A DNA stretch of 27,060 nt. Source: a virus (taxonomy: Duplodnaviria; Heunggongvirae; Uroviricota; Caudoviricetes). The stretch's first letter is position 1, and each line of letters begins with the position of its first letter. The stretch is taken from IMG/VR virus record IMGVR_UViG_2681813321_000031; one strand, given 5' to 3'. The notes beneath the pieces are model-generated. The model had not been told where the DNA came from, searched no databases, and saw only the letters and a list, made by a program, of their open reading frames with translations. The translations under genes were made by a program, and so were the position numbers. This document shows positions 1,353-27,060 of the stretch, piece by piece.

Positions 1353-2348
1353 TTACCCAAGCACGCCGGTTGCAAAGGCGTGATCAAGAAAATGAAAAAT
1401 TAAATCAACCTGGGAACCATGCTTTTCTTCGAATGCCAGCGGATCCGCATGAAGCTCGTTGTGATGTTCCCGACACAGCGGTAGTGTGAAAATATCGTGG
1501 GATTTTGTTCCCATTCCACCCTGACCGTGGCCTATCAGGTGGTGGGCATCATCAGCAGGCTTTCCGCAACATGCGCACGGCTGCGTCTTAACCCAGCGCG
1601 TGTACTTTTCATTAACCCAGCGGCGACGTTTTGGGCGTAACATAAAAGACTCCGGCGACTCCGGATCCACTTTCAGCGCCAGCACCTTTTTCGCCTTATC
1701 CTGGATGATGCTGGTGGCAGTAACCGAAGGCACAAGGTCACTTTCCCGGGTAACAGACGGCACAACAGGCTTCGGTAATCTCAGTGCCTTACGGGCTGCA
1801 CTTTCCGATAAGGCATCCGCCAGATCATTACGAATCAGCCACCAGCACAGTTCCGGCATTGTCACAACGTGACTGTCGTCAAAACCGAGCTCCCGACGCA
1901 CAACAGACAACACCCAGCGGGCACAGTTATCCGTTGCCATTGATTCCAGCCGTTCCGTGAACTGATCGCGCAGCTGGTTATCGCAGTGCCAGCACAGACG
2001 GATCGCGCCCGGAGCGTGTCGCATTGTGGTCATGTTCTCGCTGTGCCAGTTGGAATGAGGCCACTGACAGCCCTTTTCACGAAGTAACCAGCTTTCAAGA
2101 CATTCCACGCCACCAGCACGACGGATCACTGCCTCATTGCGGAACACGGCCCGAACGGCAGGATCATCCGCCAGCGGTTGTGATGCCGCCGGAACGGCAC
2201 CACTGGCAAAAGATGAATAACGTTCCGGCTCAGGCTCCAGCAGGACACGCCCCTGCATAAACAGGGGCATCAGCTCTGAACCGGGCCTGAACAATACGAT
2301 CCCCATACGCGGGGCAATTTCAGGGGTCAGTAGTGCTCTCACGGTCAC
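1353..2348 (-). CDS. DUF968-like prophage protein with C-terminal HNH-type Cys/His motif
   Basis: 331-aa ORF; C-terminus CACCGKPADDAHHLIGHGQGG...LPLCREHHNELH is a CxxC...HH...C..HH HNH-like zinc-finger signature; resembles YdfU-type prophage proteins. The 5' part of the gene lies inside the 7.55-kb repeat unit. Confidence 0.75.
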   Translation of the reverse strand: MTVRALLTPEIAPRMGIVLFRPGSELMPLFMQGRVLLEPEPERYSSFASGAVPAASQPLADDPAVRAVFRNEAVIRRAGGVECLESWLLREKGCQWPHSNWHSENMTTMRHAPGAIRLCWHCDNQLRDQFTERLESMATDNCARWVLSVVRRELGFDDSHVVTMPELCWWLIRNDLADALSESAARKALRLPKPVVPSVTRESDLVPSVTATSIIQDKAKKVLALKVDPESPESFMLRPKRRRWVNEKYTRWVKTQPCACCGKPADDAHHLIGHGQGGMGTKSHDIFTLPLCREHHNELHADPLAFEEKHGSQVDLIFHFLDHAFATGVLG

Positions 2349-2393
2349 CTCAGCGAACGGTATTGCATGAACGCAGAAGAAAAAATTCAGCCA

Positions 2394-2651
2394 TCACGCA
2401 GTAAACTCCTTCACCAGTATTTCAAACTGGCTTACCTGGCCTTCCAGTTCCGCCACGCAATCCACCAGCTCATCCACCGCCTTTTGTGTGCGGTGTTTTG
2501 CCAGCAGCAGATCACGCAGCGCCGGAGTAAGCTGCTTGCGGAGCGTATCCTTTGCCACGCTCGTTTTTTCCATCTGTTCAGCACAACGAAGCATCTCCTG
2601 CGCCTGCCGACGAAGTTGTTCCGGTGAAACAGTGATTGCTCTGTTGTTCAA
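2394..2651 (-). CDS. hypothetical protein (85 aa, predicted helical)
   Basis: ORF overlaps the dnaB-like stop by 4 nt (translational coupling); no family recognised. Confidence 0.55.
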   Translation of the reverse strand: MNNRAITVSPEQLRRQAQEMLRCAEQMEKTSVAKDTLRKQLTPALRDLLLAKHRTQKAVDELVDCVAELEGQVSQFEILVKEFTA

Positions 2652-4048
2652 AATAAACGCTCCGTTTTACTGCCCGACATGCGGTTATTGCTGTATCTGC
2701 GCGGATTGCCCGGCGTCATGGGTGTGGAAAGAACCCGGGCACTCTCCTGGTCCACAGGCAGAAAATGTCCGTTATGAAAACGCCGGTAAATGGTCCCGAG
2801 CGTGCCATTACGCTGTTTCGTGATGTTGATTTCTGCTATGCCTCTGGCCTGAGTTTCCGGGTTGTATACCTCATCCCTGTAAAGCATCAGAATGATGTCG
2901 GCATCCGCCTCGATTTCCCCGGAGTTTTTCAGGTCCGAGTTCATTGGGCGTTTATTGGGTCTGGATTCCACGCCGCGGGAGAGCTGGCTCAGAGCAATCA
3001 GCGGAAAACCGCCGGATTTTGCCAGGCTTTTAAGTCCCTTTGAGATTTCCCCCACAGCAAGGTCGTGACGCCCCGTGCTGCGGGTTTTAATCAGGCCGAG
3101 GTAATCGACCACAACCAGCGCCGTTTCCGGGTGTTTCATCCGGTGGTGCTTCGTGGTTGCACATATCTCATCAATGGTCAGGTTTGCCTGGTCCACCATC
3201 CAGATATTACGCCCCGTCATTCGTCCCACGCCCTGCGAGAAACGCGCCCAGTCTTCATCTTCAAAACGGGCAACAGACTTAAGACGGGATACCGGCATTC
3301 CACCGGCAGCAGACACCATACGTTCACCAATCTGGATGTTCGCCATCTCCATGGTGAACAGAAGCACGCCATGCCCCTGCTCAGTCACCTTGTCGATGAT
3401 GTCCAGCGCAAGTTCGGTTTTCCCCATCGAAGGACGGGCGGCAATGAATACCAGGTCTCCGGGCTCCATACCGCCCGTTTTTGCGTCCAGTTCATCAATA
3501 CCGGTCATCAGCGCCCTGGATTTCTCCAGTCCCTGATTGCGGCATTCAACACGGTCGACCACTTCCGGAAGGACATCATCAATGTGAACCGGCTGAATGA
3601 CGCCCTTTCCGGTCGACAGTGAGGCCATCATGTTCTGCGCATCCTTCAGGGCATCCTCGGCTGCTTCACAGGTATACGCATCACGTAAATTCTGTAATGC
3701 TTCAGTCAGTGTTTTTTCTGCATCGCGCAGTGCGGCATTGCGCCGCAACGCTGCGACATAGTGCTCCAGTGAAGACTTCACCCAGGTTTTGCGTCCGGTG
3801 TCGGTAATCACCGGGGCAAGTTCCGGCATCTCATTGCACAGCAGTACGGGGTCAATGACGCCGAATATGCGAGCCTGTCTGCAAATCCCCGCGTAAATAT
3901 CCCGGTACTGACGCACAAAAAATACATCCGCCGGAAGTGTGGCCAGAATATCCATCACTTCCGGATCGGCCCCACGCAGAAAAAACGCACCGATGACAGC
4001 GCCTTCCAGGTCATCGTTACGCCATGCCGGGGTGTTCTGGCTGGTCAT
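2648..4048 (-). CDS. DnaB-family replicative DNA helicase
   Basis: 466 aa; Walker A GARPSMGKTELALDI, FTMEMANIQ and SQLSRGVESR regions match the DnaB RecA-like domain; 4-nt overlap with the upstream loader gene. Confidence 0.95.
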   Translation of the reverse strand: MTSQNTPAWRNDDLEGAVIGAFFLRGADPEVMDILATLPADVFFVRQYRDIYAGICRQARIFGVIDPVLLCNEMPELAPVITDTGRKTWVKSSLEHYVAALRRNAALRDAEKTLTEALQNLRDAYTCEAAEDALKDAQNMMASLSTGKGVIQPVHIDDVLPEVVDRVECRNQGLEKSRALMTGIDELDAKTGGMEPGDLVFIAARPSMGKTELALDIIDKVTEQGHGVLLFTMEMANIQIGERMVSAAGGMPVSRLKSVARFEDEDWARFSQGVGRMTGRNIWMVDQANLTIDEICATTKHHRMKHPETALVVVDYLGLIKTRSTGRHDLAVGEISKGLKSLAKSGGFPLIALSQLSRGVESRPNKRPMNSDLKNSGEIEADADIILMLYRDEVYNPETQARGIAEINITKQRNGTLGTIYRRFHNGHFLPVDQESARVLSTPMTPGNPRRYSNNRMSGSKTERLF

Positions 4049-4953
4049 GCGGCAACACCTCCGATACGAGAACGGTAGCTGGGCCAGTTAAACGACAACC
4101 AGTTGCGCCCGCCATCGGTGATCCTGTCGGCAATCCGGGGACTGATGAACGCCCACAATTCTTCCGGTGAAAGGTTGCTGATCAGGATAGTTGGCAAAAT
4201 ACCCTCATACCGGGCATTGATAATTTCCTGCAAAATGGCCATTTCAGCCGCACTGCCAAACTGAACGCCGACTTCGTCGACAATCAGCAAATCCAGTGAC
4301 GCATAATGCTCAATGACGTCATCCGCTGTTTTTTCACTGTCATTCCGCCAGCAGTTTTTCACAGCCCGGGTAAGGCGCATCACGTCGGTGATCTCCACAC
4401 TGGCCAGATAGTTACGGATGATGTGTTTTGCCATTGATACCGCCAGATGATTTTTCCCGGTACCGCAACTGCCGGTCATAACAAGACTGGTACCGTTCTC
4501 CAGCATATCTGGCCAGTTCTCCGCATAGCGGCGACAGGCCGCAAGATTTCTGGCTGCGTCAGGATTAACCTCCAGATAATTATCAAACTCGCAGTCCCGA
4601 AAACGCAGAGCAATTCCGGCGTTATCAGTCAGTTCTTCCGCCTTGAGGGACGACAGTTCCATGGTCAAATCACTGGCCTCAGCGATCAAGCAGTCAGGGC
4701 AGCATGAAATTTTTTCTCTGTCCTCGCCATTACGATCGATCCACACCAGTATATGCGTACGATATTTACCGTGTTTTTCGCAATATCCGCGACCTTCACG
4801 CATCAGGCAGGAACGATAAGGCCATGGCTTTTCGCCCTTCTGAGCAAATGCAATCTCTGCCCGTAACTCATCCATTTCTGCCCGTAACTCATCCATTCGC
4901 GCCTGTAGTCTTGTTTGTTTCTCACGTTGGTCAATCGTCATCATCGCTGTCAC
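4045..4953 (-). CDS. DnaC/IstB-like AAA+ helicase loader with N-terminal Cys-rich region
   Basis: 302 aa; Walker A GSCGTGKNHLA, Walker B LLIVDEVG; N-terminal Cys/His cluster (C...CEKHGK...CCPDC). Confidence 0.85.
   Translation of the reverse strand: MTAMMTIDQREKQTRLQARMDELRAEMDELRAEIAFAQKGEKPWPYRSCLMREGRGYCEKHGKYRTHILVWIDRNGEDREKISCCPDCLIAEASDLTMELSSLKAEELTDNAGIALRFRDCEFDNYLEVNPDAARNLAACRRYAENWPDMLENGTSLVMTGSCGTGKNHLAVSMAKHIIRNYLASVEITDVMRLTRAVKNCWRNDSEKTADDVIEHYASLDLLIVDEVGVQFGSAAEMAILQEIINARYEGILPTILISNLSPEELWAFISPRIADRITDGGRNWLSFNWPSYRSRIGGVAA
4858..4899. repeat. 21-bp in-frame tandem duplication inside the loader gene
   Basis: ctgcccgtaactcatccattt / ctgcccgtaactcatccattc; encodes MDELRAE-MDELRAE in the N-terminal coiled region. 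Confidence 0.8.
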
Positions 4954-4954
4954 C

Positions 4955-5947
4955 TCAGAATGTCAATTTGTTACTGGATTTACCGAATTTGTCCGACATG
5001 GCTCCCAGGCCAGCCAGGACATCGACCTGTCGCTGTCGCCCACCTCCGTGAGCGGCTGGCTGTTGCCAGTAATCTTCGAAGTGACGATCGGGTCCAAAGA
5101 ACGTCGCAGCCTGCTTCACGAACTGTGTGCCGATATTTCCTGTAGCACGTACCCAGGCGGCATACCGCTTCACGCCATCAAGCATGGTCTCCGGTTTTAT
5201 TCCCTCCCTGATACGGGCTTTCCAGGCTTTGAAGGCTGCTGACTTGGAATTGCCACCAGCACGTTTGGGATATTCCTGCCAGGCCTGTTCAAATTCCGGT
5301 GAATATTCCTGTCGGGCAGAACGCGCTGGCGCAGACGCGTCAGCGGATGCATCAATAGTGTTTTTAGTCTCCGTTGTAATCTCTGTAGTAATCTCTGTAT
5401 TTGTATCAACATTCGGCGTATCCCCTGTTCCGTTATGACGTCGGGGGGTGTTCCGTTTTAACGTAATAGCTGTATCGCTGATTGCATTATTGCTGTTACT
5501 TTCTGGCGAAACAGAAGAAGGTGTGGTGATGGCCGCAATTGCCTGTGGGTTGATCCCGACAAACAAAATATTGCTGCATTTCACCCCATCGAGCATTTCC
5601 ACCGTGCGTAAATCCAGAGTAATAAACCCTGCATCGCGCAGACGCTTCAGCGCATCTGCGGTTTCCCTTTTCCCGAAACCAAACTGCTCAGCAAACGCCT
5701 GGTAGCTTCTTTGCAGTTTGTCGCCCTGAAAACGCTTGCGATATCCCAGCAACGCTCCGGTGTGCTCATCCCTGACCTCTGTCGGGCGGTACCAGTAAAC
5801 GATCTCTGAAAGCAGAGCGATAGCCGTCGCATCCGGACGCCCACTGGGTAGTCGAATATATTTCCACCAGTTCGCAGGTGTAACATTGCCGGAAATATTA
5901 ATTTGACCAATAGCCATAACTTCCGGTGTGGGGGCGTAACGGCTCAT
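4955..5947 (-). CDS. putative replication initiator (O-like / replisome organizer)
   Basis: 330-aa ORF directly upstream of the loader and helicase genes; conserved N- and C-terminal blocks separated by a low-complexity T/E/I-rich linker. Assignment is by position plus weak motif resemblance. Confidence 0.55.
   Translation of the reverse strand: MSRYAPTPEVMAIGQINISGNVTPANWWKYIRLPSGRPDATAIALLSEIVYWYRPTEVRDEHTGALLGYRKRFQGDKLQRSYQAFAEQFGFGKRETADALKRLRDAGFITLDLRTVEMLDGVKCSNILFVGINPQAIAAITTPSSVSPESNSNNAISDTAITLKRNTPRRHNGTGDTPNVDTNTEITTEITTETKNTIDASADASAPARSARQEYSPEFEQAWQEYPKRAGGNSKSAAFKAWKARIREGIKPETMLDGVKRYAAWVRATGNIGTQFVKQAATFFGPDRHFEDYWQQPAAHGGGRQRQVDVLAGLGAMSDKFGKSSNKLTF
5375..5398. repeat. 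12-bp direct repeat (gtaatctctgta x2) in the initiator linker
   Basis: Encodes TEITTEITTE; candidate iteron-like repeats by analogy with lambda ori lying inside O. Confidence 0.4.
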
Positions 5948-6243
5948 ACAACCTCCTTCCGCGGCATGAGAATTGTGTAGCCACGCGCAGGTTGTAGTCT
6001 GGCTTTTGCATCAATAGTAAGCGTTGCAATTTTTCGGATATGAAGATAACCAGCTCTTTCCAGTGCCAGGGTTTCCCTGAATATCGCTTGCTTAGAACAA
6101 CAGCAGAAATCAGCAAGCACCTGATGATCAATAACTCTCTCGCCTTCACCGTCTGAAGAACCCGACATCAAAACACGCAACATAATCAGGCGCTGAATCG
6201 GGTTATCGAAAGCACATCCGCACACAAACTGAAAACAGTTCAC
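5944..6243 (-). CDS. hypothetical protein, possible winged-helix DNA-binding
   Basis: 99-aa ORF coupled to the initiator start by a 4-nt overlap. Confidence 0.45.
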   Translation of the reverse strand: MNCFQFVCGCAFDNPIQRLIMLRVLMSGSSDGEGERVIDHQVLADFCCCSKQAIFRETLALERAGYLHIRKIATLTIDAKARLQPARGYTILMPRKEVV

Positions 6244-6464
6244 GCCACACCTCCCAGACGCTTAAACATTTTTCCAGACAGAAATACCGCCAGAGGGTAA
6301 CTGATGGTGTAGCTACGCCCCTGTAGTTCGCACACGACTTTCTGGCTTTCAGCGTTGACTAGGCAAACCCGCAGAACGTGACCGTTGCTGGTGGCGAACC
6401 ACTGCCCCACACGGGGGCAACGGTTGTATCGGTGATACAGGGAATTAACGATGTGGCGGATCAT
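6240..6464 (-). CDS. hypothetical protein (74 aa)
   Basis: ORF in the operon, 4-nt overlap with the downstream gene. Confidence 0.4.
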   Translation of the reverse strand: MIRHIVNSLYHRYNRCPRVGQWFATSNGHVLRVCLVNAESQKVVCELQGRSYTISYPLAVFLSGKMFKRLGGVA

Positions 6465-6655
6465 GGACGCACCTCCACCGTAGTTACGTATTTAACCGGG
6501 CTACCTTTCATTGAGATGGTTTCACACATCTCTGCCGCTTTCAGTTCCGCTGTTTTTCTGGATTTATAGCGACGGTGCCAGACAGATACATCCGTGCGAA
6601 CTGATACATCGTTTCTGTATTCCGTAGTGGAGATGATGATTTCGTAACTAATCAT
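6461..6655 (-). CDS. hypothetical protein (64 aa)
   Basis: ORF in the operon, coupled to the neighbours. Confidence 0.4.
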   Translation of the reverse strand: MISYEIIISTTEYRNDVSVRTDVSVWHRRYKSRKTAELKAAEMCETISMKGSPVKYVTTVEVRP

Positions 6656-7203
6656 GGGCGAACCTCCTTGTCAGAACCATTCAGCCTGGAATCAACAAGT
6701 GCAGCGCCAAAAACAGCATCACCAACACGGTCGTACAGTTTGCTAGCCAGCGGAGATTCAACGGCCTTAAGCATTGGATAAAGCTGGCTTGTCCAGATTT
6801 GATGGATTTCACGCAAATGCAGGTATACGCCTCTGGCGTTTCGTGCGACAGCTGACATATCAACCGCGTCAGCACCAGATAAATTCTTCTCCATCTGGTT
6901 AAAGGCGTTGATGTATGCCTCTTTGAACCGGGCTGCACGTTTGCCAGTAAAGCCCATAGCAAGGAACGCGAAGCCATCGCGGGTGATTTGATAGCAAGGT
7001 AGTTTGCGGCCTGTGCAATCGGTGTAATCACTGGGCTGAAAATTCAGCTCAGTGAATTCAACAGAGCACTCAAGCGTCTGGATTTTTTGAATAACGTTTT
7101 TGTGCTGCTTGCAGAAATATTCGGCAACGGCCAAAGAAGAGGTAACAGCCTTCCCATGGATAACATCAATTTTAGGGTGAGTTTGGGTAGGGGTGGTTGC
7201 CAT
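6652..7203 (-). CDS. rha: phage regulatory protein Rha (core, 183 aa from ATG 7201-7203; track ORF extends to 7500)
   Basis: VTSSLAVAEYF...FTELNF...GRKLPCYQITRDGFAFLAMGFTGKRAARFKEAYINAFN matches the Rha N-terminal domain. ATG at 7201-7203 has a GAGGA Shine-Dalgarno 7 nt upstream. The longer 282-aa ORF reads through an upstream terminator hairpin and the structured element. Confidence 0.8.
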   Translation of the reverse strand: MATTPTQTHPKIDVIHGKAVTSSLAVAEYFCKQHKNVIQKIQTLECSVEFTELNFQPSDYTDCTGRKLPCYQITRDGFAFLAMGFTGKRAARFKEAYINAFNQMEKNLSGADAVDMSAVARNARGVYLHLREIHQIWTSQLYPMLKAVESPLASKLYDRVGDAVFGAALVDSRLNGSDKEVRP

Positions 7204-7260
7204 AGTGACATCCTCATGTGCGAATTTTGAAAACTCACCACATGGGACGCCAATCACAGA

Positions 7261-7339
7261 GGTGGTGAGACGTACAGGGTTGGCGTAACCGGTCGCACAT
7301 GACCCCGGCGCATCTTTCGATGCCCCTGCACGCCCCACC
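7261..7339 (-). ncRNA. candidate structured cis-regulatory RNA in the rha leader (P1 16-bp helix enclosing P2 and P3 hairpins)
   Basis: Minus-strand GGUGGGGCGUGCAGGG (7339-7324) pairs with CCCUGUACGUCUCACC (7279-7264): 13 Watson-Crick + 3 G-U pairs, which become A-C mismatches on the plus strand. P2 GCAUC-GAAA-GAUGC at 7323-7310. Copy 2 has the same P1 and a P2 of CCAAC-UUCG-GUUGG. Confidence 0.45.
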
Positions 7340-7366
7340 ATAATTTGGATGTGAGGAAACGTGCGC

Positions 7367-7389
7367 AAAAAAACCGCTGAAGCGCGGTT
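7367..7389 (-). terminator. intrinsic terminator-like hairpin + U7 between the rha-like gene and rha
   Basis: Minus-strand AACCGC-GCUUCA-GCGGUU followed by UUUUU; stem and U tract are conserved in copy 2 while the loop and flanks diverge. Confidence 0.45.
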
Positions 7390-7583
7390 ATGCGCATGTG
7401 CGAATTTCAGGACGCCAATCCCGGCACCCGCTTTATAAGGTGCGGAGACAGTGTAACGTCCCGAAATTGCAGAATCAATATTTGGTCTTGAAATGATCAT
7501 ATAGCTGCTGATATCTTTAGAACTGTTCTTGGATGTTTCGGAGCCGTTTTATGCGAAACAGCTCCCCGTTATTGATGTTGAGT

Positions 7584-7609
7584 GAGCCGGGTTACTCCCG
7601 GCTTTTTTT
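7584..7609 (+). terminator. plus-strand intrinsic terminator overlapping the stop codon of the 235-aa gene
   Basis: GAGCCGGG-UUACU-CCCGGCUU plus a 7-T tract on the plus strand only (no U tract on the minus strand); implies a plus-strand transcript convergent with the operon. Confidence 0.45.
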
Positions 7610-8316
7610 CACCGCTGCCAACCAATAACCTGAAATAACCCCATTTTCGGGTGATACCAGCGAGTCCCTCGCGGTTCTGCTTCCTCCATAACCCGATAAA
7701 AAGCAGCCATAAACGGTTCCACAGCAACAATTGCGCGACGTGACAACAATCCGTCCGGCGTCATGAACTCATGGGTGTCTGTAGGAATTTGATAGGCGTT
7801 CACCAGATTGCGGCATTTATCATCTGACAAACCGGTTTTTGCTTTCAGTTGGCGATATCCGGCATAGCCCTCACGAATAGTGCCCTTTTTAATTTGCTCG
7901 ACTGTTTCAGCAACGTGGCTGACTTTTTCTTCCACCTGAGTGATCCGTTTCTGTTGGCGAACGGCTTCAAGAGCCATCGCGGCAACCATTTCGATTTCGC
8001 TCATTGGCTTACGGATCTGTTCTTCCAGTTCGCGCCAGCGATCTACCAGGCGAGCAGTGAATTCAGGACAGAGCTGTGCGACGACAATGATGCTGTCGCG
8101 CTTACCTCGTTCACCTTCGAATACATACGCGCTAGAAAATCGGCGAGGCCCAAGTGATTGTTTATTCTCAATTTCCACAGTCTGTGGAAATTGGATGATT
8201 CCCTTTTTAGCCAGTGTTTCAATAGTTCTCTTAACACTATCTGGTCGGCTTCCCACCAGCTCTGCGATCTCAACGCTGGTCATGGATGCTTTGCCGTTAA
8301 AAATTGCGGTGTTCAT
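7609..8316 (-). CDS. Rha/antirepressor-like phage regulatory protein (235 aa) at the cII position
   Basis: N-terminal TSVEIAELVGSRPDSVKRTIETL resembles the Rha-type N-terminal DNA-binding motif; ATGA overlap with the upstream Cro-like gene. Confidence 0.55.
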   Translation of the reverse strand: MNTAIFNGKASMTSVEIAELVGSRPDSVKRTIETLAKKGIIQFPQTVEIENKQSLGPRRFSSAYVFEGERGKRDSIIVVAQLCPEFTARLVDRWRELEEQIRKPMSEIEMVAAMALEAVRQQKRITQVEEKVSHVAETVEQIKKGTIREGYAGYRQLKAKTGLSDDKCRNLVNAYQIPTDTHEFMTPDGLLSRRAIVAVEPFMAAFYRVMEEAEPRGTRWYHPKMGLFQVIGWQR

Positions 8317-8540
8317 TGTTGGTCTCCTGTGGGCTTGTCATCTTCTGTATTCGCTAGACTTGGGTGTGTATATGGAATGCTCGGATCCAGATGACAAAGA
8401 ATGGCAACATCCTCCGGAACACCTCGCGTTTTCCACTTTCCAACACCTTGACTGCCACGAGGCCTTCCTTTCTTTGGGAACCTGCGACCAATAGCGGCAT
8501 TGGTTTTAAATTGAATTTTTAATATTTCATAAAGGGTCAT
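8313..8540 (-). CDS. Cro/DicC-like small DNA-binding protein (75 aa)
   Basis: First gene divergent from cI across an operator-rich intergenic region; small and basic; ...FKTNAAIGRRF... resembles the Cro/DicC HTH region. Largely positional inference. Confidence 0.5.
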   Translation of the reverse strand: MTLYEILKIQFKTNAAIGRRFPKKGRPRGSQGVGKWKTRGVPEDVAILCHLDPSIPYTHPSLANTEDDKPTGDQQ

Positions 8541-8651
8541 TCTTTAGTCTCACACCAGATACTTTGTTATTCAACGATGTTAACCACAGGAATCCAAAGT
8601 ATCAAGAAATTCTGTTACTTTAGTATCAACAGCCATGAGAGGAGAAGAAAA
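8541..8651. promoter_or_regulatory. OR-like operator/promoter region between the cro-like gene and cI
   Basis: Three copies of the core AGTATCA / GATACT (8558-8564 inverted; 8598-8604 and 8622-8628 direct) in 110 bp; AGAGGAGAA Shine-Dalgarno before the cI ATG. Confidence 0.5.
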
Positions 8652-9308
8652 ATGAAGTCTTTAGGTGAACGTCTCATCAACGCACGGCAAAAAGCTGGGT
8701 TAACACAAGATGCGTTGGCTAAAAAAGCTGGGATCACCAGAGTTGCAATCAGTAAAGCCGAGCAAGGCCTTACAAAAAGTTTCAACGGTGACACCCTTTT
8801 TAAAGTTGCAGCTGCACTGCGGTGTTCACCGCAGTGGCTTCAGAACGGAGATGAAAAAGATAAGCATTGGGAAAATAATGTTAAGAGCTGCCCACAGAGA
8901 GACACAGCACACTCTTACCCTGTAATTAACTGGGTTCAGGCAGGATTATTCGCAACTTCTGGTGATGACTACAACATGTATGATCAGGATAATTGGAGGC
9001 ATTCTGTAAAATACGCTGGTGAGAGGGGGTTCTGGCTGGAAGTGCACGGAGACTCAATGACTTCGCCCGTAGGAATAACATTTCCTGAAGGAATGTCGAT
9101 CCTTGTCAACCCAGATAAAGAAGTTTTTTCAGGGTGTTACGTCATCGCCAGAAAAAAATCTACCAATGAAGCAACATTCAAAAAATATATTTCTGACATG
9201 GGAAAGGCGTTTCTAAAGCCCCTTAATCCACAATATCCAATCATAGAAATGGACAATGATTGCGAAATAGTAGGTGTTGTGGTTGATGCCAGGTGGGATA
9301 TTTTCTGA
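8652..9308 (+). CDS. CI-like prophage repressor (XRE HTH + S24 LexA-like peptidase domain)
   Basis: MKSLGERLINARQKAGLTQDALAKKAGITRVAISKAEQG is an HTH; C-terminal ...LEVHGDSMTSP...CYVIARKK... shows the S24 Ser/Lys dyad pattern; strong RBS. Track ORF starts 75 nt earlier at an alternative codon. Confidence 0.9.
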   Translation: MKSLGERLINARQKAGLTQDALAKKAGITRVAISKAEQGLTKSFNGDTLFKVAAALRCSPQWLQNGDEKDKHWENNVKSCPQRDTAHSYPVINWVQAGLFATSGDDYNMYDQDNWRHSVKYAGERGFWLEVHGDSMTSPVGITFPEGMSILVNPDKEVFSGCYVIARKKSTNEATFKKYISDMGKAFLKPLNPQYPIIEMDNDCEIVGVVVDARWDIF

Positions 9309-9411
9309 CCAGACACAAAACACAAAAAGAAACCAAAGTATCAAAAATCACTTGCCACACCTTGATACCTTAGTTACCATAAAACAAAGTTCGTAACTGA
9401 GGTATCATCCC
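9309..9411. promoter_or_regulatory. OL-like operator/promoter region downstream of cI
   Basis: The same GTATCA core recurs three times (9337-9343, 9363-9369 inverted, 9401-9407), forming an inverted pair AAGTATCAA...TTGATACCT. Confidence 0.4.
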
Positions 9412-9771
9412 ATGATCAATAAAGCTACAACTCTTGACTGTCTCGAAGAACTGAAAAACCTCGGCAGCCTCATTACACTAATAGCAAAAGCAACACCTGA
9501 TGCTACGCTCTCTAGCGATATAGAGTCATGCGCAGGACTGGCATGGGATATGACAAATAGCATATCCAGAAAGCTATCGTCAGCAATGCTTTTACAGAAC
9601 AAAAATTCTGCAATCAACAACCGTCTTCGCACCCAACGCGAAGCCTGCGGCTTAACAACCGCCGAACTCGCCAGGCTGCTCGATCTCGATGAAGAAATTA
9701 TCATCCAGTGGGAGAGCGGAGAGTATGAACCAACTATCAGTATGCTTATCCCACTGGCAAAAGATGAATAA
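9412..9771 (+). pseudogene. 3'-truncated copy of the XRE HTH gene, cut at the tandem-duplication junction
   Basis: Identical to the first 116 codons of 16969..17472, then diverges after the microhomology ccactggcaaa (9751-9761) into sequence from the DUF968 gene, ending ...LAKDE. Confidence 0.6.
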
Positions 9772-14015: not shown

Positions 14016-14206
14016 GGACGCACCTCCACCGTAGTTACGTATTTAACCGGGCTACCTTTCATTGAGATGGTTTCACACATCTCTGCCGCTTTCAGTTCCG
14101 CTGTTTTTCTGGATTTATAGCGACGGTGCCAGACAGATACATCCGTGCGAACTGATACATCGTTTCTGTATTCCGTAGTGGAGATGATGATTTCGTAACT
14201 AATCAT
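14012..14206 (-). CDS. hypothetical protein, copy B
   Basis: Identical to 6461..6655. Confidence 0.4.
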   Translation of the reverse strand: MISYEIIISTTEYRNDVSVRTDVSVWHRRYKSRKTAELKAAEMCETISMKGSPVKYVTTVEVRP

Positions 14207-14754
14207 GGGCGAACCTCCTTGTCAGAACCATTCAGCCTGGAATCAACAAGTGCAGCGCCAAAAACAGCATCACCAACACGGTCGTACAGTTTGCTAGCCA
14301 GCGGAGATTCAACGGCCTTAAGCATTGGATAAAGCTGGCTTGTCCAGATTTGATGGATTTCACGCAAATGCAGGTATACGCCTCTGGCGTTTCGTGCGAC
14401 AGCTGACATATCAGACGTATCGGCACCTGATAAACTCTTCTCCATCAGGTTAAAGGCGTTGATGTATGCCTCTTTGAACCGGGCAGCACGTTTACCAGTG
14501 AAGCCCATGGCAAGGAACGCGAAGCCATCGCGGGTGATTTGATAGCAAGGTAGTTTGCGGCCTGATGCGTCGGTGTATTCACTTAACACAAAATTGTGTT
14601 CAGTAAATTCAGCGGAACATTCGAGGTTTCTAATTCTATCTAAAACCCGCTCATGCCGTTTAGTAAAGTAATTAGCTACTGCAAGAGATGTGGTGACAAC
14701 GCGACCATTGATAATCGTGATTTCAGGGTGAGATTGGGTTGGGAGAGTAGTCAT
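14203..14754 (-). CDS. rha: phage regulatory protein Rha, divergent allele (core from ATG 14752-14754; track ORF extends to 15057)
   Basis: C-terminal half identical to copy A; the N-terminal Rha domain carries many substitutions (e.g. KQHKNVIQKIQTL vs KRHERVLDRIRNL). Confidence 0.8.
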   Translation of the reverse strand: MTTLPTQSHPEITIINGRVVTTSLAVANYFTKRHERVLDRIRNLECSAEFTEHNFVLSEYTDASGRKLPCYQITRDGFAFLAMGFTGKRAARFKEAYINAFNLMEKSLSGADTSDMSAVARNARGVYLHLREIHQIWTSQLYPMLKAVESPLASKLYDRVGDAVFGAALVDSRLNGSDKEVRP

Positions 14755-14814
14755 GGTGACAGCCCCTATGTTGAATTCAATGAACTCACCACCAAGGCTT
14801 TCCACGACCATATA

Positions 14815-14893
14815 GGTGGTGAGACGTACAGGGGTGGAAATACCGGTCAACATAGAACCCGGCCCAACCGAAGTTGGCCCTGCACGCCCCACC
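14815..14893 (-). ncRNA. candidate structured RNA element, copy B (covarying with 7261..7339)
   Basis: P1 strands identical to copy A; P2 is CCAAC-UUCG-GUUGG (plus strand 14864-14877); P3 retains the CCGG...CCGG pairing with a diverged loop. Confidence 0.45.
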
Positions 14894-14924
14894 ATAATTT
14901 GGGCGTAACGATGCTCATGACACG

Positions 14925-14946
14925 AAAAAACCGCATGAGCGCGGTT
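14925..14946 (-). terminator. intrinsic terminator-like hairpin + U tract, copy B
   Basis: Minus-strand AACCGC-GCUCAU-GCGGUU followed by UUUU; same stem as copy A, different loop. Confidence 0.4.
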
Positions 14947-15140
14947 GTGCTCTATATTGAATTTCGGGTTTCCACGCCCGGCACCCGCTTTATAAGGTGC
15001 CTGAGCAGTGTAACGTCCCGGAATTGCAGAATCAATATTTGGTCTTGAAATGATCATATAGCTGCTGATATCTTTAGAACTGTTCTTGGATGTTTCGGAG
15101 CCGTTTTATGCGAAACAGCTCCCCGTTATTGATGTTGAGT

Positions 15141-15166
15141 GAGCCGGGTTACTCCCGGCTTTTTTT
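15141..15166 (+). terminator. plus-strand intrinsic terminator, copy B
   Basis: Identical to 7584..7609. Confidence 0.45.
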
Positions 15167-20940: not shown

Positions 20941-21456
20941 ATGGCGTTAACACACCACGAACTCTGTCAGATTGCGTACAAGTTCCTTAAGCGCAACGGG
21001 TTCAAGGTTTGCTTTCATGACCGCTTTGTTGCTGTAACCAGTACCGGAGAACAGCCAGATGCTATGGGATTCAGAAATTCAGCATCATGCCTGATAGAGG
21101 CGAAGTGTTCTCGTGCTGACTTGTTGGCAGATAGAAAAAAGCGTTTCCGTAAAAATCCCTCACTTGGCATGGGCGACTGGCGATTCTTTATTAGTGAGCC
21201 GGAAATTATTTCAGTTGAGGATTTACCTCCCGGCTGGGGATTACTTCACGTTGTTAACGGAAGAGTACGGAAAGTACATGGATGGCCCAGGGGTAATTGC
21301 TGTTGGGGTAATCCTGACGATAAGCCATTTACTGGGAATAAGCAGGTTGAATGCGATTACATGTTATCTGCATTAAGGCGCATGGAGTTGAGAGGGCACC
21401 TTAATGAAATATATGACGGTGTGATTGTTAATAAGAAAGAAGGAAACGCGGCATGA
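20941..21456 (+). CDS. hypothetical protein with PD-(D/E)xK-like nuclease motif (171 aa)
   Basis: ATG at 20941 preceded by AAAGGAGAG; ...DAMGF...CLIEAKCS... fits the D...(D/E)xK signature. The 3' end of this gene is where the 2.87-kb repeat begins. Confidence 0.5.
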   Translation: MALTHHELCQIAYKFLKRNGFKVCFHDRFVAVTSTGEQPDAMGFRNSASCLIEAKCSRADLLADRKKRFRKNPSLGMGDWRFFISEPEIISVEDLPPGWGLLHVVNGRVRKVHGWPRGNCCWGNPDDKPFTGNKQVECDYMLSALRRMELRGHLNEIYDGVIVNKKEGNAA

Positions 21457-22211
21457 TCACTATTACCAAAGGGCGACTGCTGACAATCAAGCAGTGGCGC
21501 GAAACATACGGACCGGGTAGCAACGTTGTACTGCCAGCAGAAGAAGCGGAAGAACTGGCACGAATTGCACTGGTATCGCTGGAAGCAGAGCCGGTGGCAA
21601 AGATTATAGCTCATTACCCATTAGGAGTTGACGTAGGCAAACAAAAGTTCGTACAGGCCATTGGAGAGCTTCCTGACTTTGGCGGATATCTATTTGCCGC
21701 CCCGCCAGCGCCGGTAGTGCCGGAAGAAGCAACTCCGGAAAACGTAGAAATGCTCTCTGGCTATGTTTCCACGTACAAATTAACCGATAGCGAGCGCGAT
21801 ATTGCTGCCGAAATATGGAACGCCTGCCGCACCGCCATGCTTCAGTCCGGAAACTTTCGGGAAAGCAAGAATTCGTCAACCAATAATTTTCGGGAAATCC
21901 CGGAAGCGTCAACCAGCTCTCCGGTAACTCCGGCTCTTCTGCCTGGTGGTTTCACCATTGAGGAGGCGAAGGAATTACATGAAGACCTGGTACGCAGCCA
22001 CATAAGCAAGGCCTTAAGTGGCGAAAAGATGAAAAAGAAAGATCGCGATGCTGATTTGCGCTGGATTCATGGCGTTATAGTTCAGGCAGCGTGGTTTGTA
22101 AAAGCATCACTGGAGCAGAATGCACTATCGGGCAACTCTCCGGTAACTCCGGATGGTTGGATAAGCTGTAGTGAGCGAATGCCGGACGACAGGCAGGAGG
22201 TGAATCAATGA
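21453..22211 (+). CDS. DUF551-like prophage protein (252 aa)
   Basis: C-terminal PDGWISCSERMPD resembles the DUF551 signature; ATGA coupling with the upstream gene. Confidence 0.6.
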   Translation: MITITKGRLLTIKQWRETYGPGSNVVLPAEEAEELARIALVSLEAEPVAKIIAHYPLGVDVGKQKFVQAIGELPDFGGYLFAAPPAPVVPEEATPENVEMLSGYVSTYKLTDSERDIAAEIWNACRTAMLQSGNFRESKNSSTNNFREIPEASTSSPVTPALLPGGFTIEEAKELHEDLVRSHISKALSGEKMKKKDRDADLRWIHGVIVQAAWFVKASLEQNALSGNSPVTPDGWISCSERMPDDRQEVNQ

Positions 22212-22291
22212 GCTGGCCTGATGCAATCGTAACTCTGGGGGTGGTATTCGCAGCAGCGTTTGTTGTGTTCTCGATTTGTCGATGGGGATAA
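22208..22291 (+). CDS. candidate 27-aa hydrophobic micropeptide
   Basis: MSWPDAIVTLGVVFAAAFVVFSICRWG; ATG overlaps the DUF551 stop (ATGA). Too short for the ORF track. Confidence 0.3.
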   Translation: MSWPDAIVTLGVVFAAAFVVFSICRWG

Positions 22292-22295
22292 CCAC

Positions 22296-22538
22296 ATGTT
22301 CGCTTTGATTCAACGCGGTCAGATATACACGGACAGAGCTGGATACCCCGTGGTGATTACTCGCATCACTGAGCACTCAGTGTTCTTTCGACGGATGGAC
22401 GGACGATCCGGGCGGGTACGCATTGGTGAGTTAAACTGCCTGTTCGAACATATTGACCACCAGGAGTACCGCAAAATTCTCGCGGACACTGAGCAGGAAA
22501 AGCACCTGAAAAAATTACGAGCCATAAAAAGGAAGTAA
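22296..22538 (+). CDS. hypothetical protein (80 aa from ATG 22296)
   Basis: Track ORF 22260..22538 starts at TTG; ATG at 22296. Confidence 0.45.
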   Translation: MFALIQRGQIYTDRAGYPVVITRITEHSVFFRRMDGRSGRVRIGELNCLFEHIDHQEYRKILADTEQEKHLKKLRAIKRK

Positions 22539-22550
22539 AGAATGAATAAA

Positions 22551-22571
22551 NNNNNNNNNNNNNNNNNNNNN
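22551..22571. other. assembly gap (21 N)
   Basis: Run of n; an ATG (22542) with AAGGAAG Shine-Dalgarno opens an ORF that runs straight into the gap. Confidence 1.
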
Positions 22572-23623
22572 GGGGACGCTGGGTGATTGAAGGCGACCTG
22601 TCCAGTTACTTCGACACCGTACATCATCGACTGCTGATGAAGGCTGTACGCCGCAGGATCAGTGACGCACGTTTCATGACTCTGCTGTGGAAAACCATCA
22701 AGGCGGGACATATCGATGTCGGTCTCTTTCGGGCGGCCAGTGAAGGTGTGCCACAGGGCGGTGTTATATCGCCGCTATTATCGAACATCATGCTGAATGA
22801 GTTCGATCAATACCTGCATGAGCGCTACCTGAGCGGGAAAGCCAGAAAAGATCGGTGGTACTGGAATAACAGTATCCAACGGGGCCGAAGTACGGCGGTC
22901 AGAGAAAACTGGCAGTGGAAACCCGCGGTGGCGTACTGCCGCTATGCCGATGATTTTGTCCTCATCGTCAAAGGCACCAAAGCACAGGCGGAAGCCATCA
23001 GGGAGGAGTGTCGGGGTGTGCTCGAAGGCAGTCTGAAACTCAGGCTGAACATGGATAAGACTAAAATCACCCATGTTAATGACGGCTTTATCTTTCTGGG
23101 GCACAGGATCATTCGCAAACGCAGTCGTTATGGCGAGATGCGAGTGGTCTCAACGATCCCGCAGGAGAAAGCCAGAAACTTCGCCGCATCGCTGACAGCA
23201 CTGTTATCAGGCAACTACAGTGAAAGCAAAGTCGATATGGCTGAACAACTCAACCGAAAACTGAAAGGCTGGGCCATGTTCTATCAGTTCGTTGATTTTA
23301 AGGCCAAAGTCTTCAGTTATATCGACCGTGTCGTGTTCTGGAAGCTGGCTCACTGGCTGGCCCGCAAATACCGTACAGGTATCGCTTCCCTGATGAGGTG
23401 GTGGTGTAAATCACCGAAACCGGGTCAGAGCAAAACGTGGGTTTTATTTGGTAAAACCAATCACGGCAAGCTCAGCGGCGAAATACTGTACCGGTTGGTG
23501 GGGCAAGGCAAGAAGCTGTTCCGCTGGCGGCTACCCGAAGGTAATCCCTATCTGAGGACGGAGACCAGAAACACGTATACATCGCGCTTTACAGAAGTGG
23601 CAATGGCGTTCGCCAGCATTTAA
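22572..23623 (+). CDS. group II intron-encoded reverse transcriptase/maturase, 5'-truncated by the gap, no endonuclease domain
   Basis: GRWVIEGDLSSYFDTVHH, VPQGGVISPLLSNIMLNEFD and YCRYADDFVLIV parallel the RT motifs of Ll.LtrB LtrA; LKGWAMFYQF is maturase-domain-X-like. Frame is open upstream into the N-run. Confidence 0.85.
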
Positions 23624-23628
23624 ATGGA

Positions 23629-23662
23629 GAGCCGGATGCGCTGAAAGGTGCACGTCCGGTTC
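23629..23662 (+). ncRNA. group II intron domain V (catalytic hairpin)
   Basis: GAGCCGGATGCGCTGAAAGGTGCACGTCCGGTTC: 34 nt, AGC triad, GAAA tetraloop, 2-nt bulge; near-identical in architecture to the Ll.LtrB domain V as recalled. Followed by a domain VI-like hairpin with a bulged A (~23663-23711). Confidence 0.85.
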
Positions 23663-23685
23663 GGGGAGGAGAGGCAGGGAAATAG

Positions 23686-24200
<515 letters not shown>

Positions 24201-24324
24201 TGGGAATAAGCAGGTTGAATGCGATTACATGTTATCTGCATTAAGGCGCATGGAGTTGAGAGGGCACCTTAATGAAATATATGACGGTGTGATTGTTAAT
24301 AAGAAAGAAGGAAACGCGGCATGA
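24201..24324 (+). pseudogene. 3' fragment of the PD-(D/E)xK-like gene (duplicate of 21333..21456)
   Basis: Begins abruptly at the IS right end; lacks a start codon. Confidence 0.6.
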
Positions 24325-25079
24325 TCACTATTACCAAAGGGCGACTGCTGACAATCAAGCAGTGGCGCGAAACATACGGACCGGGTAGCAACGTTGTACT
24401 GCCAGCAGAAGAAGCGGAAGAACTGGCACGAATTGCACTGGTATCGCTGGAAGCAGAGCCGGTGGCAAAGATTATAGCTCATTACCCATTAGGAGTTGAC
24501 GTAGGCAAACAAAAGTTCGTACAGGCCATTGGAGAGCTTCCTGACTTTGGCGGATATCTATTTGCCGCCCCGCCAGCGCCGGTAGTGCCGGAAGAAGCAA
24601 CTCCGGAAAACGTAGAAATGCTCTCTGGCTATGTTTCCACGTACAAATTAACCGATAGCGAGCGCGATATTGCTGCCGAAATATGGAACGCCTGCCGCAC
24701 CGCCATGCTTCAGTCCGGAAACTTTCGGGAAAGCAAGAATTCGTCAACCAATAATTTTCGGGAAATCCCGGAAGCGTCAACCAGCTCTCCGGTAACTCCG
24801 GCTCTTCTGCCTGGTGGTTTCACCATTGAGGAGGCGAAGGAATTACATGAAGACCTGGTACGCAGCCACATAAGCAAGGCCTTAAGTGGCGAAAAGATGA
24901 AAAAGAAAGATCGCGATGCTGATTTGCGCTGGATTCATGGCGTTATAGTTCAGGCAGCGTGGTTTGTAAAAGCATCACTGGAGCAGAATGCACTATCGGG
25001 CAACTCTCCGGTAACTCCGGATGGTTGGATAAGCTGTAGTGAGCGAATGCCGGACGACAGGCAGGAGGTGAATCAATGA
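24321..25079 (+). CDS. DUF551-like protein, copy B
   Basis: Identical to 21453..22211. Confidence 0.6.
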   Translation: MITITKGRLLTIKQWRETYGPGSNVVLPAEEAEELARIALVSLEAEPVAKIIAHYPLGVDVGKQKFVQAIGELPDFGGYLFAAPPAPVVPEEATPENVEMLSGYVSTYKLTDSERDIAAEIWNACRTAMLQSGNFRESKNSSTNNFREIPEASTSSPVTPALLPGGFTIEEAKELHEDLVRSHISKALSGEKMKKKDRDADLRWIHGVIVQAAWFVKASLEQNALSGNSPVTPDGWISCSERMPDDRQEVNQ

Positions 25080-25159
25080 GCTGGCCTGATGCAATCGTAA
25101 CTCTGGGGGTGGTATTCGCAGCAGCGTTTGTTGTGTTCTCGATTTGTCGATGGGGATAA
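25076..25159 (+). CDS. candidate 27-aa hydrophobic micropeptide, copy B
   Basis: Identical to 22208..22291. Confidence 0.3.
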   Translation: MSWPDAIVTLGVVFAAAFVVFSICRWG

Positions 25160-25163
25160 CCAC

Positions 25164-25406
25164 ATGTTCGCTTTGATTCAACGCGGTCAGATATACACGG
25201 ACAGAGCTGGATACCCCGTGGTGATTACTCGCATCACTGAGCACTCAGTGTTCTTTCGACGGATGGACGGACGATCCGGGCGGGTACGCATTGGTGAGTT
25301 AAACTGCCTGTTCGAACATATTGACCACCAGGAGTACCGCAAAATTCTCGCGGACACTGAGCAGGAAAAGCACCTGAAAAAATTACGAGCCATAAAAAGG
25401 AAGTAA
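25164..25406 (+). CDS. hypothetical protein (80 aa), copy B
   Basis: Identical to 22296..22538. Confidence 0.45.
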   Translation: MFALIQRGQIYTDRAGYPVVITRITEHSVFFRRMDGRSGRVRIGELNCLFEHIDHQEYRKILADTEQEKHLKKLRAIKRK

Positions 25407-25418
25407 AGAATGAATAAA

Positions 25419-25439
25419 NNNNNNNNNNNNNNNNNNNNN
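25419..25439. other. assembly gap (21 N), copy B
   Basis: Run of n identical in length and position to 22551..22571. Confidence 1.
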
Positions 25440-26491
25440 GGGGACGCTGGGTGATTGAAGGCGACCTGTCCAGTTACTTCGACACCGTACATCATCGACT
25501 GCTGATGAAGGCTGTACGCCGCAGGATCAGTGACGCACGTTTCATGACTCTGCTGTGGAAAACCATCAAGGCGGGACATATCGATGTCGGTCTCTTTCGG
25601 GCGGCCAGTGAAGGTGTGCCACAGGGCGGTGTTATATCGCCGCTATTATCGAACATCATGCTGAATGAGTTCGATCAATACCTGCATGAGCGCTACCTGA
25701 GCGGGAAAGCCAGAAAAGATCGGTGGTACTGGAATAACAGTATCCAACGGGGCCGAAGTACGGCGGTCAGAGAAAACTGGCAGTGGAAACCCGCGGTGGC
25801 GTACTGCCGCTATGCCGATGATTTTGTCCTCATCGTCAAAGGCACCAAAGCACAGGCGGAAGCCATCAGGGAGGAGTGTCGGGGTGTGCTCGAAGGCAGT
25901 CTGAAACTCAGGCTGAACATGGATAAGACTAAAATCACCCATGTTAATGACGGCTTTATCTTTCTGGGGCACAGGATCATTCGCAAACGCAGTCGTTATG
26001 GCGAGATGCGAGTGGTCTCAACGATCCCGCAGGAGAAAGCCAGAAACTTCGCCGCATCGCTGACAGCACTGTTATCAGGCAACTACAGTGAAAGCAAAGT
26101 CGATATGGCTGAACAACTCAACCGAAAACTGAAAGGCTGGGCCATGTTCTATCAGTTCGTTGATTTTAAGGCCAAAGTCTTCAGTTATATCGACCGTGTC
26201 GTGTTCTGGAAGCTGGCTCACTGGCTGGCCCGCAAATACCGTACAGGTATCGCTTCCCTGATGAGGTGGTGGTGTAAATCACCGAAACCGGGTCAGAGCA
26301 AAACGTGGGTTTTATTTGGTAAAACCAATCACGGCAAGCTCAGCGGCGAAATACTGTACCGGTTGGTGGGGCAAGGCAAGAAGCTGTTCCGCTGGCGGCT
26401 ACCCGAAGGTAATCCCTATCTGAGGACGGAGACCAGAAACACGTATACATCGCGCTTTACAGAAGTGGCAATGGCGTTCGCCAGCATTTAA
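25440..26491 (+). CDS. group II intron RT/maturase (5'-truncated), copy B
   Basis: Identical to 22572..23623. Confidence 0.85.
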
Positions 26492-26496
26492 ATGGA

Positions 26497-26530: not shown

Positions 26531-26553
26531 GGGGAGGAGAGGCAGGGAAATAG

Positions 26554-27060
<507 letters not shown>

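Follow-up and report, generated by a model that had tools for sequence, protein, structure and literature searches.

Which kind of RNA is encoded ahead of a phage rha gene, at a locus where two diverged copies of the leader keep their base pairs while their sequence changes, and on what would such an RNA act? The question arises from the window considered here, that is, the whole stretch of 27,060 nucleotides of a Caudoviricetes virus (IMG/VR record IMGVR_UViG_2681813321_000031), in which a preliminary description had noticed a structured element on the minus strand, in the sense of rha. The analysis reported below indicates that this element is very probably a C4/CI-type immunity antisense RNA which, together with its partner isrK, occupies the 5' portion of an eta-like ORF whose 3' portion is the Rha gene, within the early-right operon of a lambdoid prophage.

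Genomic context of the rha leader

The early-right operon is read on the minus strand in the order cI | cro, roi, isrK-C4-rha, small ORFs and replication genes. The S24 repressor of the early region is divergent (8577-9308, plus strand), and the minus-strand genes comprise a cro-like ORF, placed between the repressor and the Roi-like gene, the Roi-like gene itself (7609-8316), which precedes the RNA module, then, after rha, three small ORFs and finally the replication genes, namely a 330-aa ORF (4955-5947) and the DnaC/IstB-like and DnaB-like genes. The Rha-family gene of copy 1 encodes 183 aa (6652-7203, minus strand, ATG at 7203-7201) and matches Pfam PF09669 with an E value of 1e-32; that of copy 2 (14203-14754, minus strand, ATG at 14754-14752) matches the same family with an E value of 2e-30. 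The element had been placed shortly before GAGGA and the rha ATG, and measured from the 3' end of the Rfam C4 match (7258) the distances are 43 nt to the Shine-Dalgarno (SD) sequence GAGGA and 55 nt to the ATG.

The two copies belong to a tandem repeat of 7.55 kb, with an offset of 7551 over about 2200-6800 and of 7557 over about 7400-9700. The diverged patch at about 6800-7400, where the copies are about 25% divergent, is indeed the only one in the repeat, as had been claimed. No complete E. coli genome out of 5,426 contained the repeat junction. Copy 1 is about 99.2% identical to the matching region of Escherichia phage PhiR49_2 (a complete-genome record), and modules related to copy 1 and copy 2 occur in 281 and 161 phage records, respectively, among them ST64B, mEp460 and many Stx-converting phages. 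In many Stx-converting and other lambdoid phages the module is found just upstream of the replication genes, and differences in specificity between its alleles could bear on superinfection immunity or induction.

A strand-specific three-helix RNA

The element extends on the minus strand over 7258-7345 in copy 1, as delimited by Rfam RF01695, folding and RNAalifold, and over 14812-14899 in copy 2, by Rfam RF01695 and folding. In copy 1 its layout consists of the P1 stem (7340-7324/7279-7263), the P2 hairpin (7323-7310) and the P3 hairpin (7309-7288). The P1 stem originally described, in which GGUGGGGCGUGCAGGG (7339-7324) pairs with CCCUGUACGUCUCACC (7279-7264) over 16 consecutive positions, 13 Watson-Crick and 3 G-U, was reproduced and can be lengthened to 17 bp by the pair U7340-A7263; both of its strands are unchanged in copy 2, as had also been noted. 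P2 reads GCAUC-GAAA-GAUGC in copy 1 and CCAAC-UUCG-GUUGG in copy 2, so that the compensatory changes reported before, two base-pair flips together with a GNRA-to-UUCG loop swap, are found in the sequences of both copies. In P3 the stem GCCGG/CCGGU is the same in both copies and the 12-nt loop differs; the view that this third hairpin keeps its stem under a diverged loop holds for the stem, but the loop is not unconstrained, as it covaries with the sites a1 and a2 described below.

The minus-strand fold has a predicted energy of -46.5 kcal/mol in copy 1 and -44.5 kcal/mol in copy 2 (z -4.7 and -4.65), a stability reached by none of 200 shuffles, and for the plus strand the z values are -1.6 and -1.15. 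The strand specificity of the structure, already proposed from mismatches on the plus strand, is borne out by these values (about -4.7 on the minus strand vs about -1.4 on the plus strand). Applied without a prior to 17 sequences, including P4 CI and Gifsy-1, RNAalifold returned the same three helices, with 27 pairs of which 11 are compensatory and none is broken, and the minimum free energy structure of C4 is identical to the RNAalifold structure. It had been stated beforehand that a broader alignment lacking compensatory changes in P1 and P2 would speak against the structure, and the alignment favours it.

For a wider comparison, 80 related loci were taken from IMG/VR by tblastn in the frame of the long ORF that overlaps the element (see below), every C4 in them was located, and a gapless alignment of 16 distinct modules was built from anchored segments, which were used because MAFFT placed the 3-nt insertion of copy 2 out of register with the b2 target. 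Among these 16 modules, 100% of the cells are paired in P1, 98.8% in P2 and 100% in P3, with compensatory changes at 4 of 17, 4 of 5 and 0 of 5 pairs, respectively. The minus-strand element is thereby confirmed as a genuine strand-specific, covarying three-helix RNA.

Membership of the C4 and isrK families

The preliminary description had not recognised a named RNA family and had suggested a search of Rfam. When the whole window is scanned at the curated thresholds (45 bits for RF01695 and 50 bits for RF01394), the element matches RF01695 with 75.1 bits in copy 1 and 82.4 bits in copy 2, over model positions 1-87 of 87 in both, so that the earlier verdict does not hold. RF01695 includes the c4 RNA of P1/P7, the CI RNA of P4 and STnc1160 of Salmonella. 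The element does lie in the 5' region of rha, as first stated, but it is not just a cis leader; the family of which it is a member consists of processed antisense RNAs.

Directly upstream, on the same strand, is an isrK/seqA-like RNA (RF01394, threshold 50 bits), at 7367-7443 in copy 1 (62.3 bits) and at 14924-15000 in copy 2 (61.6 bits), 21 nt from C4 in each case and closed by an intrinsic terminator found by a terminator scan (7389-7372 plus a U run; 14946-14929 in copy 2). Because the same pair occurs with the same order and spacing in the characterised P4 and Gifsy-1, the family is one that has been both named and experimentally studied. The c4-a1b1 model RF03163 remained below its threshold of 46.7 bits, with 23.9 bits at 7404-7456 and 23.6 bits at 14961-15013, and the a1/b1 sites themselves are present. 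These sub-threshold matches fall at the expected place in both copies. Weinberg et al. (2010) list c4 antisense RNA as well as the a1b1 motif that it targets. Neither the isrK directly upstream nor the target logic set out in the next section had been observed in the preliminary description.

In front of isrK, the minus strand carries a promoter-like block at 7450-7478, TTGATT (7478-7473) and TACACT (7455-7450) separated by 17 nt, which was delimited by positional homology and conservation and ends 7 nt before the 5' end of isrK. This 30-nt block is unchanged in all the modules, the flanks being variable. A promoter scan made no call at 7450-7478, where the block agrees with the consensus at 8 of 12 positions. 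The block occupies the same position as PisrK of Gifsy-1 (TTGACA-17-TATATT) and PLE of P4 (TTGCCT-17-TATAGT), and by analogy with them 7450-7478 would be an internal promoter.

Recognition elements and their targets

Two unpaired parts of C4 appear to carry its specificity. In copy 1, the loop of P3 forms the element a' (GGUCAUGUGCGA, 7293-7304), and the element b' (ACGCCAA, 7280-7286) is the single-stranded junction that links P3 to the 3' strand of P1. Each is complementary to one site in isrK, a' to the single-stranded a1 (UCGCACAUG, 7395-7403) and b' to b1 in the hairpin loop (UUGGCGU, 7412-7418), and to one site downstream, a' to a2 (UCGCACAUGA, 7214-7223), which shares 2 nt with the rha SD GAGGA (7215-7211), and b' to b2 (UUGGCGU, 7247-7253), which begins 4 nt past the 3' end of C4; all of these lie on the minus strand. 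In copy 2 both a' (GUUCUAUGUUGA, 14847-14858) and b' (UUUCCAC, 14834-14840) differ from those of copy 1, and all four target sites are altered to match, that is, a1 (UCAAUAUAG, 14952-14960, with one G-U pair) and b1 (GUGGAAA, 14969-14975) in isrK, b2 (GUGGAAA, 14799-14805) and a2 (UCAACAUAG, 14766-14774), the last of which adjoins the GGGG of the rha ribosome-binding site; these sites, too, are on the minus strand.

The same logic is found among the 16 distinct modules, in which the reverse complement of b' served to find b2, which lies at a constant offset of +4, with +6 in copy 2 only. When the 27 internal pairs of C4 are taken together with a'-a2 and b'-b2, the resulting 45 pairs are 98.5% paired and 21 of them are compensatory, as compared with 81% pairing in shuffles and 33-44% in slid controls. 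For the downstream targets, a'-a2 is 94% paired (8 of 11 pairs compensatory) and b'-b2 100% paired (5 of 7); for the sites in isrK, a'-a1 is 91% paired (7 of 10) and b'-b1 97% paired (5 of 7). Judged by complementarity and covariation, the P3 loop and the 3' junction are recognition elements with two complementary sites each, one in isrK and one in the ribosome-binding region of rha.

The 3' strand of C4 can also enter an alternative helix, in which 7262-7269 pairs with the segment GUGGUGAG (7234-7241, minus strand); this helix is 95% paired in the 16 modules, with 2 compensatory pairs, and would put b2 in its loop. In P4, unrelated yet complementary sequences are found where the window has the alternative helix.

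Predicted specificity of the two copies and module arrays

Duplex energies were computed on loop-only and junction-only segments. The predicted a'-a2 duplexes have a mean of -15.6 kcal/mol when the partners are of the same type vs -5.4 kcal/mol when they are of different types, and the corresponding means for b'-b2 are -9.9 and -3.5 kcal/mol. In the window, the cognate a'-a2 duplexes reach -16.1 (copy 1) and -12.1 kcal/mol (copy 2), and the cross-combinations -2.2 and -3.9 kcal/mol; for b'-b2 the cognate values are -10.0 and -8.3 kcal/mol, and the cross values -2.9 and -2.0 kcal/mol. The two copies of the window are thus predicted to be mutually orthogonal, and they are expected not to cross-react because the predicted energies separate cognate from non-cognate duplexes.

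In related prophages the modules can be multiplied further, with two or three isrK-C4-rha-like modules in a tandem array, for example at 1000, 1656 and 2312 in locus L040 and at 344, 1000 and 1656 in locus L044, and within an array the a' type differs from module to module. The 16 distinct modules contain 10 types of a' and 6 types of b' in 15 combinations, a pattern by which a' and b' appear to reassort independently. It may be suggested, as a tentative proposal that we hold with some doubt, that the two copies of the window and the tandem arrays are orthogonal RNA 'lock-and-key' cassettes, that is, a combinatorial RNA immunity code gating Rha paralogues in lambdoid phages, the Stx-converting ones included. 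If this were true, the code would define heteroimmunity groups that are invisible to typing by protein repressors. The tandem, putatively orthogonal modules also offer a handy natural system for studying how antisense specificity diversifies.

The overlapping reading frame and alternative explanations

The leader is also covered by a long ORF (6652-7500, minus strand; 282 aa, or 284 aa in copy 2), which is in frame with rha and enters it after crossing the promoter-like block, isrK and C4. Its ATG at 7500 has no obvious SD and no coupling to the upstream gene, from which it is separated by a gap of 108 nt. The first 99 aa match Pfam PF10554, Phage_ASH (42.8 and 33.6 bits vs a threshold of 26; E 8e-11 and 6e-8), and what aligns with this profile is the translated sequence of the promoter-like block, isrK, C4 and the a2/b2 region. 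All 32 distinct modules lack a stop in this frame, the two remaining frames having 77 and 129; the retrieval by tblastn in this very frame biases the primary modules towards open frames, and the secondary modules of the arrays, which are free of this bias, are also open. The differences between the copies are distributed over the three codon positions as 26/31/22 in the leader, with no excess at the third position (p 0.46), and as 23/18/44 in the rha core, where the third position is in excess (p 0.0012). At P2 the overlapping ORF reads ASKDA in copy 1 vs PTSVG in copy 2, in agreement with what had been reported. By its substitution pattern, the leader of the long ORF does not appear to evolve like a protein, and the statement that selection acts here on RNA rather than on protein proves right on account of the even spread over codon positions in the leader, even if the translation of this frame may still matter. 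In phage records the RNA genes are usually merged into a long CDS, which many records name 'hypothetical protein', 'peptidase' or 'Rha', and the RNAs are missed. The idea that PF10554 is a pure artefact of translating RNA genes was softened in view of P4 eta, an ORF that crosses the same region and is translated.

With these data in hand, it is very unlikely that the region is simply protein-coding, encoding a 282-aa Rha protein with 'Ash' as its N-terminal domain, the RNA fold being incidental. Such a reading would account for the ORF being open in both copies, for its Pfam match, for the frame free of stops in all 32 modules and for the fact that the indels between the copies are multiples of 3, and it can point to P4, in which Eta is translated through the homologous region (PMC10111431). 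It is at odds, however, with a leader that differs from the rha core in its codon-position pattern, with radical amino-acid changes exactly where base pairs persist or targets change together, and with an ORF that contains a promoter-like block and an intrinsic terminator; moreover, a '137-aa cI protein' once drawn over the same RNA in P4 is a historical misassignment, because the immunity factor of P4 is the CI RNA, and translation of the ORF and function of the RNA can coexist.

Closer to the preliminary description is the possibility of a purely cis-acting rha leader (an attenuator, a thermosensor or a riboswitch-like fold) from which no processed or trans-acting RNA is made, and this is unlikely. 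The full-length match is to a family of stable processed RNAs (P1 c4, P4 CI, STnc1160), and the loop and junction, where they vary, do so in step with two target sites, of which one belongs to a different RNA gene 90-120 nt further upstream, whereas a simple leader hairpin has no need for covarying double targets; what is conserved are the stems, and not a core of the ligand-binding type. These points outweigh the location of the element on the strand of rha and in its 5' region, the existence of the alternative helix between the C4 3' strand and the downstream segment, and the two alternative conformations of the full-length transcript in the Gifsy-1 study (PMC4825925), all of which would suit a cis leader. 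That the cassette is a decayed relic with no function in this prophage is extremely unlikely, although dead modules are frequent in cryptic prophages and the 7.55-kb tandem repeat is unusual, with a junction found in 0 of 5,426 complete E. coli genomes: both copies have Rfam scores far over the threshold and not one broken pair, each copy has its six recognition and target elements intact and matched despite the divergence of about 25%, and copy 1 is 99% identical to a region of PhiR49_2. The reading as a C4-type antisense RNA with its isrK partner is therefore the one followed below.

Proposed mechanism

By analogy with the characterised systems, the conserved internal promoter (TTGATT-17-TACACT) would start an RNA at isrK, most of which would end at the isrK terminator and some of which would read through. 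The read-through transcript would then be processed into a stable three-helix C4, with its 5' end presumably generated by RNase P as for P1 c4 and P4 CI; both C4 and CI are among the substrates of RNase P (PMC5499578). The a' and b' elements of this C4, being complementary to a2 on the rha SD and to b2, 4 nt past C4, could pair with these sites and so block the translation of rha, and a probable further effect of the pairing, as in P1 and P4, would be Rho-dependent polarity on the genes that follow. Since a' and b' also match a1 and b1, isrK, either in cis or as a free short RNA, would compete for C4 and could relieve the repression, as IsrK does in Gifsy-1. An upstream promoter could yield transcripts on which the long ORF is translated throughout and which escape control, like P4 eta. 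Finally, each C4 would be expected to control only its own rha copy, in the manner of P1/P7 heteroimmunity, since its a' and b' are copy-specific and have matching a1, b1, a2 and b2 sites. The complementarity, the covariation and the position at the ribosome-binding site come from the sequences themselves, and we infer the other steps from homology with P1, P4 and Gifsy-1.

Comparison with known systems

The satellite P4 has the same order of elements as the window, which belongs to the early-right operon of a lambdoid prophage, with isrK (seqA, 8615-8692) scoring 60.8 bits and C4 (CI RNA, 8420-8507) 74.9 bits. As in the window, the promoter lies within the long ORF, and a' and b' match sites both upstream and downstream, the downstream one at the ribosome-binding site of a nested short gene. 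The layout is nested in both, the window ORF (7500-6652) holding the rha start at 7203 and the P4 ORF (8767-8171) the kil start at 8365, and on the P4 sequence the eta frame, an AUG at C4 positions 5-7 and the kil AUG were checked to be all in phase, as in the window. In P4, PLE is inside eta, Kil is a short nested product and termination depends on CI and seqA; only transcripts that begin at an upstream promoter yield full-length Eta, whose translation prevents termination (PMC10111431). P4 differs in its cargo, the 65-aa Kil vs the 183-aa Rha-family protein, and the long ORF of the window, unlike that of P4, is not coupled to the gene before it.

Gifsy-1 is, like the window, a lambdoid prophage in which isrK (79 bits) is followed by C4 (69 bits). 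Its C4 match (34131-34214) coincides with orf45/STnc1160, downstream of IsrK, its b-type UUGGCGU/ACGCCAA is that of window copy 1, and its a2 likewise adjoins the SD of the downstream gene. Mutations in 'helix b-I' have been characterised there, two in IsrK (G28A, G31A) and two downstream (C162U, C159U): single mutants raised anrP translation from 4 up to 93-926 Miller units, and double mutants regained the wild-type RNA conformation (Hershko-Shalev 2016; PMC4825925). Mapped on the Gifsy-1 sequence, G28A/G31A fall at 34289 and 34286 and C162U/C159U at 34155 and 34158, and correspond exactly to the G-C pairs of b1-b', a pairing for which Gifsy-1 provides validation by mutagenesis. STnc1160 and IsrK are strongly transcribed in Gifsy-1 lysogens in every condition tested (PMC7067206). 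The module of Gifsy-1 differs from that of the window in lying after the Q antiterminator gene rather than between roi and the replication genes, and in its cargo AnrP, an ORF6N protein. Rha of the window was considered as an orthologue of AnrP and discarded, the two having no detectable similarity (E 3.8). A further difference is that orf45, although starting at the same AUG, is not fused in frame to anrP; an a' loop shorter by 4 nt puts it in a different frame, and its end overlaps anrP in an ATGA. The cargo of these modules is itself modular, with Rha in the window, Kil in P4 and an ORF6N protein in Gifsy-1. The published model for Gifsy-1 emphasises activation by IsrK and not C4-like repression, and constitutive STnc1160 left the toxicity of IsrK unrelieved (PMC4825925). 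This emphasis, the weak promoter match, the sub-threshold RF03163, the uncoupled long-ORF ATG with no obvious SD and the non-homologous AnrP cargo were counted against a reading in terms of C4 repression.

In immI of P1 and P7 an arrangement comparable to that of the window is found, as judged by Rfam membership and the literature: a processed antisense c4 whose a' and b' match a1/b1 upstream and a2/b2 at the ribosome-binding site, processing in the window being likely by analogy. Citron and Schuster, in 1990, reportedly described c4 of P1/P7 immI as an antisense RNA controlling icd-ant. Allelic differences in a' and b' give rise to heteroimmunity between P1 and P7, again by Rfam membership and the literature, and the two copies of the window differ likewise; the P1 cargo, icd and the antirepressor gene ant, and the plasmid state of the P1 prophage are unlike the window. 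Full repression of ant in P1 requires C4 (PMC8198154).

Compared with these systems, the element of the window is already known, inasmuch as the RNA family, its isrK partner, the logic of its targets and its occurrence in lambdoid prophages have all been described previously (Rfam RF01695, RF01394 and RF03163; the P4 CI literature; Barquist 2013; Hershko-Shalev 2016, PMC4825925), and what related prophages add to it, their putatively orthogonal modules in tandem arrays, is modest.

Architecture of the isrK-C4 Module

Directly 5' of each copy of the C4 antisense RNA, on the minus strand, lies an isrK RNA gene (7367-7443 and 14924-15000), and both isrK copies possess an intrinsic terminator and carry the a1/b1 targets of the C4 loop and junction sequences a' and b'. 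The preliminary description of the rha leader was incomplete in this respect, as isrK was absent from it, while Rfam (RF01394) detects both copies. Further upstream, inside the long ORF that runs through the module in frame into rha, a 30-nt block, ATTGATTCTGCAATTYCGGGACGTTACACTG (7450-7479 and 15007-15036, minus strand), is unchanged across all modules, and its flanking sequence varies. This block looks like a promoter for isrK-C4, and possibly serves as an operator as well. On the plus strand, antisense to the operon, a strong hairpin resembling a terminator, with a T run after it, lies in the interval that separates the Roi-like gene from the module (7584-7604 and 15141-15161).

The long ORF (6652-7500, minus strand) is matched by Pfam PF10554, the "Ash protein family," and the match corresponds to the translated promoter-like block, isrK, C4 and the a2/b2 region downstream. 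PF10554 also matches a CDS of phage P4 (8168-8584, minus strand), the old "137-aa cI gene product/transcriptional repressor," an annotation that persists over the CI RNA. The family seems to model RNA-constrained sequence within eta-like ORFs.

Tandem Modules and Repeats

In related IMG/VR prophages, two or three complete modules, each composed of isrK, C4 and a short Rha-like ORF, are found in tandem with a period of 656-866 nt (at 1000-1087, 1656-1743 and 2312-2399 in locus L040; at 344, 1000 and 1656 in L044; at 1656 and 2522 in L003/L010; at 809 and 1656 in L051). Within an array, the a' loop is distinct in every module, and b' is usually distinct too.

Among 5,426 complete E. coli genomes, none covers the junction (about 9700-9760) of the 7.55-kb tandem repeat that holds both module copies of the window, and the best matches end at query position 552. 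Either this duplication is uncommon, or it derives from another source, or it arose in assembly. A second tandem repeat, whose period is 2868 bp, spans about 21400-27060 on the plus strand. It carries an ORF for a group II intron reverse transcriptase/maturase (RVT_1 and GIIM; 22583-23623, repeated at 25451-26491); intron domains V-VI come next (Rfam RF00029, 64.9 bits; 23627-23713 and 26495-26581), and after them a fragment of an rve integrase core (23776-24192 and 26644-27060), all on the plus strand.

A Possible Alternative Helix at the 3' Strand of C4

In the closing stem of C4, the 3' strand (7262-7269, minus strand) can also pair with 7234-7241 (minus strand), a segment between b2 and a2, and this potential helix is conserved. 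As predicted from the sequence, such pairing would be in competition with the C4 stem, and b2 would then be exposed in a loop. In phage P4, the sequences at this position differ from those of the window, yet they are complementary.
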